Shown one piece after another: positions 12,976-16,754 of a stretch of DNA of 64,000 bases. Position numbers and translations under genes: made by a program. Each line of letters opens with the position of its first letter. The stretch's first letter is position 1. The stretch covers positions 1 to 64,000 of the forward strand of contig CP070758.1 in NCBI GenBank assembly GCA_020348925.1, given 5' to 3'. This DNA is from Gemmatimonadota bacterium (GTDB lineage Bacteria; JBHIER01; G020348925). The notes beneath the pieces were generated by a model. That model was not told where the DNA came from and made no database searches. It was given only the letters and a program-made list of their open reading frames with translations.

Positions 12976-13425
12976 GAAAATGAATCTATAATAATAACTG
13001 CTATTAAACAATCAGTTGAAAGATGCTTAAAAAATGAAATCCATTAANNNNNNNNNNNNNNNNNNNNNNNNNNNNNNNNNNNNNNNNNNNNNNNNNNNNN
13101 NNNNNNNNNNNNNNNNNNNNNNNNNNNNNNNNNNNNNNNNNNNNNNNATTTGTCAGAGCTTATATGTTTCATTCATTTTGGAATCAGGCATACGGAATAA
13201 TTTTCTGTTTGCACATTGTTTTCTATAATTTTTGGTTGAAACATCTTATTCCACAAAGAAATTGAAAGTGCAAAATTTTTGGATATTATGCATTTTTTGA
13301 GGATGAGTCGAAAAATTATTCTGAAAAGTCCATGTTATCAAAGAAAATATGCGCTTTCACATTATTACAATAGTTGTATATTTCGTACAAAATTGACACA
13401 ATTCACATATAAACTCTGACAAATA

Positions 13426-13579: not shown

Positions 13580-14098
13580 TCAGTTGGATGTTTTTTCTCC
13601 TCTCTCCAGACGTGATATGGGAATTATCTTGAAGTCTTCAAAGGAAACGCTACCGGGGAAATGGAACTTAAATTTCGCATTCATAATACCAGCAACTTCC
13701 ATTCCTTCAATTACTTTACAGTCGGTTGATTCGACCGAATCACGTACAGTTTCGGTCGCAGACTGGCAACCCAAAACTATCACAGCTTCATGTTGTTTTG
13801 CATATTTCTGCAGCTTTTTACGTCGTCCTGAAGTCCACACGCAAAGGAACCAATGATGATATAGTCTGCTCTTAAAAACTTTTGTATTCACTCCCCTTTC
13901 TCTTAATCGAAATTGAAGCGTTTTGATGTATTGTTCGAGAGGAACTGATTTCAGGAAACTCCTGAAAAATTGAATGAAAGGTTTTTCTTCTCTCGCGGCA
14001 ACAGTCGCTGCAGGACACATAATACATGGAACGATCAAGGCCGAATTCAATCCTGAAACTTCAGAAAGCACATCCAAGTCTTTAAAATGAATTGGCAT
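13580..14098 (-). CDS. Hypothetical protein with CxxC...C...C, possibly metal/Fe-S binding
   Basis: RBS gaagggag; LIVPCIMC, FLC, AVIVLGC motifs. Confidence 0.6.
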   Translation of the reverse strand: MPIHFKDLDVLSEVSGLNSALIVPCIMCPAATVAAREEKPFIQFFRSFLKSVPLEQYIKTLQFRLRERGVNTKVFKSRLYHHWFLCVWTSGRRKKLQKYAKQHEAVIVLGCQSATETVRDSVESTDCKVIEGMEVAGIMNAKFKFHFPGSVSFEDFKIIPISRLERGEKTSN

Positions 14099-14214: not shown

Positions 14215-14502
14215 TTAACTCAAGATGTCCTTCTTCATCTGTTCAAATTCCTCTTTTGTGATCTCTCCTTTCGCATATCTCTTTTTCAGTATATCTAACG
14301 CTGATTCCGTTTCTCCATCTTCTCTGTGGTGTTCTGTCGAGCTCCACCACGGTGGTTTACAGTCTTCAGGGCCCCACCAGGGTGACCTGCGGCTCCCTCG
14401 TCCGAAAAATACGAAACAGAAAATGATCATTACTACAAACATAATCATAGGGATAATCCACATTCCACCCCAATGCCACATCCATGGTTGTTCTGGAGTC
14501 AT
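14215..14502 (-). CDS. SHOCT-domain membrane protein
   Basis: Start at 14502 (RBS ggaga); TM helix; C-terminal ALDILKKRYAKGEITKEEFEQMK. Confidence 0.85.
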   Translation of the reverse strand: MTPEQPWMWHWGGMWIIPMIMFVVMIIFCFVFFGRGSRRSPWWGPEDCKPPWWSSTEHHREDGETESALDILKKRYAKGEITKEEFEQMKKDILS

Positions 14503-14750
14503 TGTTGTTTTCTCCGTATCGATTAAAACATCGTGAAACAGTGCTGTACTACTCGCGACTAAGAGGCTTGGAAACCTGAAGTTTTCATCTACCAAGTTGC
14601 CTCAACATGTTGAAATTATTGATGACATCAGGTGGCTATAACCACATCCGATTCAAAGCGCTGGTTAGATAACAATGATAAAGCCATGTATAATATGTCA
14701 AATGTAATAGCAATTATGAGACATTATTTGCGCCGTGGAGAAAAAGTGTA

Positions 14751-14782
14751 AACATAAAGATGCCTCCGGCATCCATATCGTT
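14751..14782 (-). promoter_or_regulatory. Putative bacterial SECIS for the C-terminal Sec
   Basis: GAUGCC-GGA-GGCAUC hairpin, loop 19 nt after UGA, with an imperfect lower stem; lies mostly in the 3' UTR. Confidence 0.65.
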
Positions 14783-15188
14783 AACCTCATCCATACCAAG
14801 CTTTTTCATCCATTTCCACTTGTAAACCTGCTAATAACTTATTGAATCCACTGAATAAATCAACGACTGCCATCAATTCGAGAACGCCTTCGTCATCCAA
14901 TCCTAATTTCCGCACCGCGGAAGTGTGGACCGTAATTCAGTACTCACATCCCATTACTGCTGATACGGCCACTGCAATGATTTCCTTTGTCAGTCTGTCA
15001 AGCTTTCCTCCTTTATGCATGATGGTCATCGTTTTGTTCCAGGTTGCCTCAAGATAGTCTGGATTATGAGCCATCACTTTGTACATATTAGGAACAAAAT
15101 CGATTCCAAGCGTATGCCTGATCTCCTTGAAAATATCTTTAATCTTGCCCGTTGCCTCCTCTTCATTGATCATTTCAATTGATGCCAT
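14781..15188 (-). CDS. AhpD/carboxymuconolactone decarboxylase (CMD) family selenoprotein with two predicted Sec (135 aa)
   Basis: KEIIAVAVSAVMGCEY-TGA(14937-39)-ITVHTSAVRKLGLDDEGVLELMAVVDLFSGFNKLLAGLQVEMDEKAWYG-TGA(14787-89)-G-TAA. The frame continues as a normal CMD helix pair past the first TGA. Confidence 0.85.
14900..14930 (-). promoter_or_regulatory. Putative bacterial SECIS for the CEYU Sec
   Basis: UUCCGC-GGU-GCGGAA hairpin, loop 20 nt after UGA, lower stem GUCC/GGAU. Confidence 0.75.
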
Positions 15189-15271
15189 ATTTTCTCTCCT
15201 CCACTATGCTAGTATTCATTAGATTTCTGTCAATCGTATCATAAGACTTTTGCATTTGCATAAATTCAATC

Positions 15272-16525
15272 TCAAGTTTTGATTTGTTCATCCAGATCAG
15301 TTGGCAGGATAACCGTGAACGTACTACCTTTACCAATCTCACTTTCTACTTTTATTTCTCCTCTATGCTTCTGAATAATGTTGTAACTTGTGAATAATCC
15401 GATTCCAGCCTTCACCCGTGATCCCTTTTTTGAGAAACTTGGATCGAATAATTTCTGAATTCGTCCGGGTGAAATACCAATTCCTGTGTCAGCAATTTGC
15501 ACACATACCTTACTATTTTCATGAACCGTACGGATTGTGATTGTACCCTTTTTCTCGATTGCCTGAACCGCATTCATCAACAGGTTCATAAATACTTGGT
15601 TTATCTCTCCGGAATGACAGGCTATCTCTGGAATATCTCCATACTCTTTTGCAATATTTATATGATCTTTGAGTTCGTGTTCAAGCAAGGTCAATATGCT
15701 TTCCAGACTATTATGTACATCGGTTTTCTGAAACGATGTTTCATCCAACCTGGAGAAACTTTTCAAGCTATTAATAATTGTTGTTATGCGTTCAGTTGCA
15801 GCTGTGGTTGCAGGGCTTGCTGCTTTAAGAGCCTGCAGTGAATTTTGAAGTTGTTTGTTGTTTTTAACTTCATTATGAAATTGTCCTTTATTCATTATTT
15901 CTAAGATATTATTAACAGAGCGATTGGATATATCCGTTACACTATTGATGGTTCCGATAGGGGTGTTTATCTCGTGAACAACACCGGCAACCAATTTTCC
16001 AAGGGCTGCCATTTTTTCCGACTGCACCAGTTTTGCCTGAGTCAGCTGCAATTCTTCGAGTAGTTGTTGCAGTCTATTTTTCTCTTCCTTCAATTTGGCA
16101 ATTTTATCCACATGATTGGCCGCTTCTCCTTTGATGAGAAGCGCGCTGTCTAAAACAGATTTTATTTCATCTTCTGCAATGCCTACAGACCGAGATGCAG
16201 CAATATGTTTAACTAGATTTGAGGTACAATTAACCGCAAAGGCAGCAGCAACGGAAACCAATTCACTGATGCGCGTCGTGCTCTCCGTCTGTACCTCTCG
16301 TGTAATACCGGTTTTTCCTCCTAAATGCTTAAGGCCATGGTCTTCCATTATTGCCTCGGCATTCTTACGCACTGATAGGGCATCCGAAATTGCTTGTTTT
16401 ATTTCGTCTTCTGAAGCACCTGCTTCACGCACTTTTTCAAAGTGATGATCTATTCAGGGCTTACAACCAGCGGCAACGGATGTTCCAATATTAACCAATT
16501 CTTTTTCTTTGGAAGTCAGTGGCAT
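15272..16525 (-). CDS. Cytoplasmic sensor histidine kinase with N-terminal tandem CMD/AhpD-like domains and predicted Sec (417 aa)
   Basis: RBS aaggag then ATG 16525: MPLTSKEKELVNIGTSVAAGCKP-TGA(16454-56)-IDHHFEKVREAGASEDEI. Second CMD repeat ELVSVAAAFAVNC; HisKA QSEKMAALG...HEINTP; HATPase N/G1/G2 boxes; no TM helix. Confidence 0.8.
16412..16448 (-). promoter_or_regulatory. Candidate SECIS hairpins for the kinase Sec
   Basis: UCAU-CACUUU-GAA-AAAGUG-c-GUGA (loop 15 nt after UGA), or alternatively UGAAGC-AGGU-GCUUCA (loop 32 nt after UGA). Confidence 0.45.
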
Positions 16526-16754
16526 AACTCACTCCTTGTATCAAAAATAATATGAGTTGTTCGCATAAAGTTATAAATTCATACTGTTTTTTACAAAAGA
16601 TTTTTCACTATTCTTCTTATTTACTTTGATTTCTGAATTGCTGGGGAAATCTATTAATATTGTTCGATATCTGGCACTGAATACTATCTTTGATATTACA
16701 CATTTTGAGGATTATTACTGATGCCGCAGAGAAATTATTTTCTGCATGGATGTC

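Follow-up and report, generated by a model that had tools for sequence, protein, structure and literature searches.

Two candidate selenocysteines, one in the active site and one penultimate, in an AhpD-like protein of a Gemmatimonadota bacterium

In AhpD, the second Cys of the CxxC motif is the nucleophile and is helped by a His four residues later; classical AhpD is not known to carry a further redox residue, a third one, at the C-terminus. Animal thioredoxin reductase ends in a Gly-Cys-Sec-Gly tail (Sec or U, selenocysteine). AhpD-like selenoproteins whose motif reads CxxU have been known since 2005 (Zhang, Fomenko and Gladyshev, PMC1088965), and the Global Ocean Sampling study reports 'AhpD-like 1' (299 sequences) and 'AhpD-like 2', abundant in marine metagenomes (PMC2398784), as given in the excerpts of both papers. 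The consulted part of Table 1 of a 2026 review gives a single Sec for each of its AhpD-like, CMD-like and AhpD-related rows (PMC13188914). Here we describe an AhpD-like gene with two in-frame TGA codons on the minus strand of a 64,000-nucleotide (nt) stretch of a Gemmatimonadota genome (positions 1 to 64,000 of contig CP070758.1; hereafter the window, to which all positions refer). On sequence grounds, we put the probability that both TGAs jointly encode Sec in a real AhpD/CMD-fold gene at roughly 0.85, because both codons are conserved, both pair with Cys in homologues, both are followed by hairpins with the geometry and covariation of a SECIS (selenocysteine insertion sequence), and Sec machinery is present.

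The gene is like the described AhpD-like and CMD-like CxxU selenoproteins in its CMD fold family, in a CxxU motif whose Sec takes the place of the second Cys and in a coding SECIS right after the UGA; it differs from them in a conserved second, penultimate Sec. No C-terminal or second Sec is mentioned in the excerpts of PMC1088965, PMC2398784 and PMC1976440, and none in AhpD or CMD proteins, second or penultimate, was found in full-text searches of the literature; supplements and BSepDB may list such entries. The penultimate Sec of AhpD-like proteins is absent from the catalogue portions examined, the CxxU family itself being known.

C-terminal Sec has been described in other families. SaoC, which ends in Cys-Sec-COOH, has a 7-base-pair (bp) stem with a GGU loop downstream of UGA-UAG, and the C-terminal Sec of KCU-star/DUF466 and of UXX-star implies a hairpin past the stop; the NCBI pipeline is described as unable to predict C-terminal Sec (excerpts of Haft and Gwadz, 10.1101/2022.07.06.499078). 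Bacterial SECIS elements are placed in coding regions in the consulted sections of the review (PMC13188914). The gene in the window shares with SaoC, KCU-star and UXX-star a Sec within a few residues of the stop, so that its SECIS must fall after the stop. It differs in that the families are unrelated and the tail Sec would be a second Sec added to a CxxU enzyme, and its candidate SECIS in the 3' untranslated region (3' UTR) is backed by 140 distinct sequences with covariation. The models for SaoC (NF040734), KCU-star (NF033934) and UXX-star (NF041114/NF041211) are not among its 11 NCBIfam matches at E ≤0.01.

An initial annotation of this DNA had likened the tail to that of thioredoxin reductase. 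What stands of the likeness is a penultimate Sec followed by Gly on a predicted flexible tail, in a redox enzyme with another redox centre. What does not stand is the remainder: the tail reads YGUG with no Cys beside the Sec, the fold is unrelated and has no flavin or NADPH domain, and the SECIS is of the bacterial kind. Neither the adjacent Cys-Sec pair nor a pyridine nucleotide-disulfide oxidoreductase domain is present, a CMD/AhpD fold being all that was found, and the analogy is a loose one.

Gene layout and fold of the AhpD-like protein

The gene and its two TGA codons are placed as follows.

14781..15188, minus strand: coding sequence (CDS) of the 135-residue AhpD/CMD-like candidate selenoprotein, ATG 15188-15186 to TAA 14783-14781, with two in-frame TGAs (translation and Pfam CMD).
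14937..14939, minus strand: TGA1, codon 84, putative Sec of C81-E-Y-U84 (GCEYU); TGA in 145 of 151 distinct loci, Cys in the other 6 (no unbiased frequency, the kept loci being the 80 most similar to the two-Sec, or U/U, query in each collection).
14787..14789, minus strand: TGA2, codon 134, putative penultimate Sec of the W-Y-G-U-G tail; TGA in 148 of the same 151 loci, Cys in 3.

A GGAGG box lies about 9 nt upstream of the ATG. The codon order is ATG, 83 codons to TGA1, 49 codons, and then WYG-TGA-GGT-TAA, where the GGT occupies 14786-14784; the second TGA is thus found as the penultimate codon, where the initial annotation had placed it. Standard calling of open reading frames breaks the gene into an 83-residue and a 42-residue piece. 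The proposal that read-through of TGA completes a 135-residue CMD fold is borne out by the full translation, which matches Pfam CMD (PF02627) over residues 43-124 with 63.7 bits against a cut-off of 23 (E 1.5e-17) and is thereby a member of that family. The AhpD core domain model TIGR00778 also matches (50.4 bits, cut-off 27.8). The closest NCBIfam subfamily, TIGR01926, falls just below its cut-off (81.1 bits against 81.8, model positions 3-92 of 178), so the protein does not count as a member; this model, 'peroxidase-related enzyme', is the one named for 'AhpD-like protein' in the consulted part of the review table (PMC13188914). No dedicated curated family fits the protein in profile searches of Pfam and NCBIfam.

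An AlphaFold2 model built from 45 aligned sequences (mean predicted local distance difference test score, pLDDT, 88) has six helices and the all-helical AhpD-like fold. Residues 123-135 have no secondary structure in this model and residues 133-135 have pLDDT below 50; the W-Y-G-U-G tail is therefore predicted to be flexible. By sequence, the closest solved structure is 2ouw, an AhpD core (E 1e-28, residues 1-128, with the tail outside the alignment). Foldseek also ranks 2ouw first, followed by 'peroxidase-related' structures of the AhpD family, with probability 1.00 and template modelling (TM) scores of 0.53-0.72; the superposition on 2ouw is loose (root-mean-square deviation 14.2). An all-helical fold and a CxxC-type motif are thus shared with 2ouw and with Mycobacterium tuberculosis AhpD (PDB 1knc, 1gu9). 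The motif and a nearby His are both found, as C81-E-Y-U84 followed, four residues past Sec84, by His88. We take this His spacing to be that of AhpD itself, with Sec84 and His88 presumably occupying the positions of the AhpD nucleophile and its assisting His.

Sec and Cys at the two UGA sites of homologous genes

To compare both sites at the DNA level, we used 160 fetched loci, 80 on genome contigs and 80 on metagenome contigs, of which 151 remained once 8 duplicates and a single locus truncated at a contig end had been removed. Written as site 1/site 2, the states in these 151 distinct loci are U/U in 145, C/U in 3, C/C in 3 and U/C in none. The genome-contig loci come from Gemmatimonadota, Zixibacteria, Desulfobacterota and other Deltaproteobacteria, KSB1, Chloroflexota, Actinomycetota, Nitrospirota, Planctomycetota, Acidobacteriota and others.

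A protein search of a large collection gave 2687 hits, and C-termini were compared in the best 120 of these, the full-length ones being 57-79% identical to the query. At least 49 of the best 120 have a CxxC centre together with a WYGCG(G...) tail and thus Cys where TGA2 sits. Another 29 have W at both sites (CxxW, WYGWG), which is what a gene caller yields when TGA is read as Trp, and 29 have a CxxC centre in a protein that ends at WYG. None of the best 120 of the 2687 hits pairs a W centre with a Cys tail. Cys81 is almost invariant in the protein homologues, and position 84 is either Cys or the W assigned by the caller. In-frame UGA aligned with Cys, and homology continuing beyond it, are accordingly found at both sites, the homology past UGA2 being short (Gly, then the stop). 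Homologous C-termini read WYGCG or WYG-TGA-G, as the initial annotation had expected.

A competing explanation is that only TGA1 encodes Sec, that TGA2 is a real stop closing a 133-residue protein at WYG, and that the hairpin beyond it is a terminator or an mRNA-stabilising element. A protein deposited in GenBank agrees with such an end: the product of locus L119, which has Cys at the first site and TGA in the tail, is entered as a 'carboxymuconolactone decarboxylase family protein' of 133 residues with WYG as its end. The DNA of this locus reads WYG-TGA-GGT-TAG, and the deposited entry is also the outcome foreseen in the initial annotation, namely that annotation would miss the second Sec. 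Against a real stop at TGA2 stand its alignment with Cys in the at least 49 proteins above and the codons that follow it. In the 148 sequences with TGA2 (the window and 147 loci), the next codon is GGN in 141, GCN in 5 and AGN in 2, and the first stop comes two codons past TGA2 in 120. A true stop imposes no such constraint and would leave the next codon free, so a conserved GGN with a stop after it argues that TGA2 is more than a stop. The constrained Gly is the residue that follows Cys in the Cys forms.

Sec machinery is present in the genome that contains the window, a single contig of 5.04 Mb. It encodes a tRNA-Sec (65.8 bits, anticodon TCA) and selD (372 bits), selB (396.5 bits) and selA (598.8 bits), all above their cut-offs, and the tRNA-Sec, selA, selB and selD on which the initial annotation counted are thus all found. 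The three sel genes adjoin one another outside the window (G000:C1:2516704-2521550). selD carries an in-frame TGA of its own, in the motif CAGU; its SECIS is shaped differently (GUU loop, about 36 nt past the UGA) and is no help either way for the hairpins of the AhpD-like gene. selB is above the cut-off in four of the five tested genomes that have a U/U gene.

We also considered, and rejected, an altered genetic code, with TGA read as Trp or Gly, or an error of sequencing or assembly. The 29 proteins in which gene callers rendered both TGAs as W speak for it, but 145 distinct loci of many phyla share the two TGAs, and these align with Cys, not Trp, in homologues. TGA is moreover an ordinary stop in this genome, where the neighbouring kinase gene ends in TGA, and the Sec machinery is complete. 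These facts leave this explanation with a negligible probability.

More distant AhpD-like paralogues of other genomes (25-38% identity; L044, L049, L050 in G055, L026, L040 in G051, L213 and L214) have one in-frame TGA each and are presumably ordinary single-Sec AhpD-like selenoproteins.

Hairpins downstream of the two UGA codons

Each TGA is followed by a hairpin, and the second hairpin by a U-rich stretch.

14898..14932, minus strand: SECIS 1 (candidate), within the CDS, upper stem-loop UUCCGC-GGU-GCGGAA at 14922-14908 on a lower stem (fold and alignment).
14758..14774, minus strand: SECIS 2 (candidate), wholly in the 3' UTR, (G)GAUGCC-GGA-GGCAUC(U), core 14773-14759 (fold and covariation).
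14750..14757, minus strand: U-rich stretch UUAUGUUU directly after hairpin 2 (terminator-like site).

SECIS 1 has 6 bp and a GGU loop; its stem lies 14 nt, and its loop 20 nt, from TGA1. SECIS 2 has 6-7 bp; its stem lies 13 nt, and its loop 19 nt, from TGA2, which places the loop 13 nt past the TAA. The bacterial SECIS model calls for 3-9 nt in the loop, 4-16 bp in the stem, a G at the first or second position of the loop that is usually followed by G or U, a UGA-to-loop distance of 16-37 nt and a minimum free energy of -7.5 kcal/mol or lower (PMC13188914). Both hairpins agree with every published constraint at these spacings, as the initial annotation had proposed. An Rfam scan of 14500-16700 at E ≤1 gave no match, a result that says little. 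We know of no bacterial SECIS family in Rfam.

SECIS 1 was aligned in 146 sequences with TGA1 (137 distinct), in which ACUUC(C/U)GC-GGU-GC(G/A)GAAG is almost invariant and the pairs of the upper stem are nearly always formed. Pair 21/29 is C-G in 82, U-A in 46 and U-G in 9 of the 137 distinct rows and is never unpaired; its switch between C-G and U-A ties a synonymous change in a Ser codon to an Arg/Gln replacement. The covariation score is 0.174 against 0.139, with none of 500 shuffles as high, and 'further pair types' do not rise above the shuffles. Overall covariation is modest because the region is coding and highly conserved. In all six loci in which Cys replaces Sec84, the arms of hairpin 1 are altered.

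SECIS 2 lies past the TAA. It was aligned in 148 sequences (140 distinct) as a seven-pair stem and compared with 500 column shuffles. Pairs are formed in 92.3% of cells, against 78.0% in the shuffles, none of which is as high, and slid controls reach 20-51%. Cells changed on both sides number 143, against 40.4 expected, and compensatory changes occur in all seven pairs. Both hairpins are thus conserved with compensatory changes, the covariation that the initial annotation looked to. The consensus of the family, GAAUGC-CGUGA-GCAUUC, has the same spacing. Downstream of TGA2, 131 of the 148 sequences have a perfectly paired stem of 5 bp or more and a pentaloop beginning CG, the loop being CGUGN in 116 of the 131; most of the other 17 have this element too, with a single mismatch or a variant loop, and one of them, L115, has none.

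These data bear directly on the possibility that TGA2 ends the protein. In the window, hairpin 2 together with UUAUGUUU scores as terminator-like, as a terminator past a real stop would, and hairpin 2 may in this genome also be an intrinsic terminator. The earlier claim that hairpin 2 is no coding by-product stands in that the hairpin lies wholly past the TAA, and is qualified by this score. Among the homologues, a T-rich stretch follows only 4 of the 131 clean hairpins, so the hairpins are not generally terminators. The distance from TGA2 to the loop is 16-22 nt in 130 of the 131 (mode 18-19), even in loci whose tail is several residues longer; since this spacing is constant and the stop moves, it follows the UGA, not the stop. 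Across phyla, the sequence of the loop and its closing G-C pairs are conserved, and covariation is seen in the stem, again in conflict with a simple terminator.

Loci with Cys at both sites offer a further control, in a small sample (of 301 genomes searched at class level, only the starting one had the gene, and of 43 searched at family level, 4 had it). Among five distinct Cys/Cys loci, L211, L212 and L215, all of one family, keep a hairpin-2-like element, and L216 and L201 lack it. Conservation of a similar hairpin in three of five loci that have no UGA2 is what a terminator or stabilising element would predict. A recent conversion from Sec to Cys (TGA to TGC) would be a simple explanation of it. 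In the three loci, the relic hairpin sits partly inside an extended tail that matches the longer tails of U forms, and the genomes of the loci that keep the element have selB-like genes. On balance, we consider it unlikely that TGA1 alone encodes Sec.

A variant of this idea is that UGA2 is decoded in part, so that a 133-residue form ending at WYG and a 135-residue Sec form occur in a mix set by selenium supply, with hairpin 2 acting both as SECIS and as terminator in this genome. Bacterial Sec insertion competes with release factor 2, and hairpin 2 in the window has both the features of a SECIS and a terminator-like pattern. The conservation of Cys at this site in homologues argues instead that the extended form is the functional one, and we hold partial decoding to be more improbable still than a real stop at TGA2.

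Several further points weigh against the reading of both TGAs as Sec, besides the terminator-like score and the choice of loci by similarity to a U/U query. The folds in the window are weak evidence alone: each hairpin folds at -14.6 kcal/mol, but 25 of 200 shuffles are as stable for hairpin 1 (z -1.16) and 3 of 200 for hairpin 2 (z -2.59). The loop of SECIS 2 in the window, CGGAG, occurs once among the 131; its C and G can pair, which gives the GGA triloop first noticed. The persistence of hairpin 2 in Cys/Cys loci means that the element is not strictly tied to UGA2. Finally, in the fifth tested genome with a U/U gene (G399), selA reaches 545.7 bits and the best selB match, at 100 bits, is below the cut-off. 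It is the comparison of homologous loci that lifts the two hairpins above chance. A genome-wide scan of the window's genome for UGA followed by a hairpin-2-type element gave eight hits, of which only the AhpD site has a plausible reading frame, so the genome does not use this element as a general type of SECIS.

A possible role for the tail, the neighbouring genes and the wider family

If both TGAs encode Sec, the gene product would be a 135-residue thiol-selenol oxidoreductase of the AhpD/CMD fold, with both in-frame UGAs decoded through the bacterial SelB pathway. UGA1 would supply the second residue of the active-site C81-x-x-U84, served by the SECIS within the CDS, and UGA2 the penultimate Sec on the disordered W-Y-G-U-G tail, served by a SECIS past the TAA at the same distance as the first. 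The tail Sec could then be a third redox residue and form a selenenylsulfide or diselenide in exchange with the CxxU centre, within or across subunits, and it may be the exposed residue that meets a substrate or partner. Such a redox-relay role is plausible.

The distribution of Sec and Cys bears on this role. Tail Sec is found beside Cys centres as well as Sec centres, and a Sec centre with a Cys tail was seen in none of the 151 loci and none of the best 120 proteins. Since tail Sec with a Cys centre exists and the reverse was not seen, the pattern in these sequences suggests that the tail is the site where Sec matters most, as would be expected of an exposed, substrate-facing residue.

The gene immediately upstream encodes a sensor histidine kinase (15272-16525, minus strand) with an in-frame TGA of its own at 16456-16454. 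The kinase probably starts at ATG 16525 and reads through this TGA, which gives an N-terminal AhpD/CMD-like sensor domain with a GCKPU motif. An orthologue in L064 (61% identity over 413 residues) stands beside its own two-Sec AhpD gene and has the same TGA, and the hairpin UGAAGC-AGGU-GCUUCA downstream of the kinase TGA is the same in both. Related domains have CxxC at this place (L073, L099, L093, L206 and L208). The neighbouring histidine kinase is likely to contain Sec; no kinase appears in the consulted parts of the review table (PMC13188914).

Downstream, a 172-residue protein with a CIMCP motif (13580-14098, minus strand) has no Pfam or NCBIfam match. By tblastn, its gene lies near a two-Sec AhpD gene, on the same strand, in 20 of the 160 fetched loci. 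The Atlas puts the protein among unnamed hypothetical families, and it has a weak structural likeness (TM 0.64) to DUF5981, a domain at the C-terminus of methylenetetrahydrofolate reductase-like proteins. Between this gene and the AhpD-like gene lies one for a small membrane protein (14215-14595, minus strand) with a C-terminal SHOCT domain (46.4 bits); SHOCT-like matches near the AhpD gene occur in only 4 of the 160 loci. A stretch at about 13050-13170 is masked as N and appears as X in the translated open reading frames.

A more extended proposal is that the tail is a swinging arm whose Sec forms a diselenide or selenenylsulfide with the CxxU of its own or an adjoining subunit, an independently evolved bacterial counterpart of the thioredoxin reductase tail, and that the protein, the histidine kinase and the 172-residue protein together make up a selenium redox-sensing module. 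We put this forward as a tentative idea, more doubtful than probable.

In metagenomes, AhpD-like proteins rank among the most abundant selenoprotein families of bacteria. If it is true that a large branch of them has a penultimate Sec, catalogues and annotation describe the wrong protein for that branch, either cut at residue 83 or 133 or with Trp in place of Sec. The family would also provide about 140 distinct natural bacterial SECIS elements that lie wholly in the 3' UTR; because they are free of coding constraint, they would form a clean data set for what SelB recognises. Mammalian thioredoxin reductase has been expressed in Escherichia coli by means of engineered C-terminal Sec tails with a SECIS past the stop. 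The family described here appears to be a natural bacterial use of that layout, and would make it possible to test directly why Sec is used as a third redox residue.

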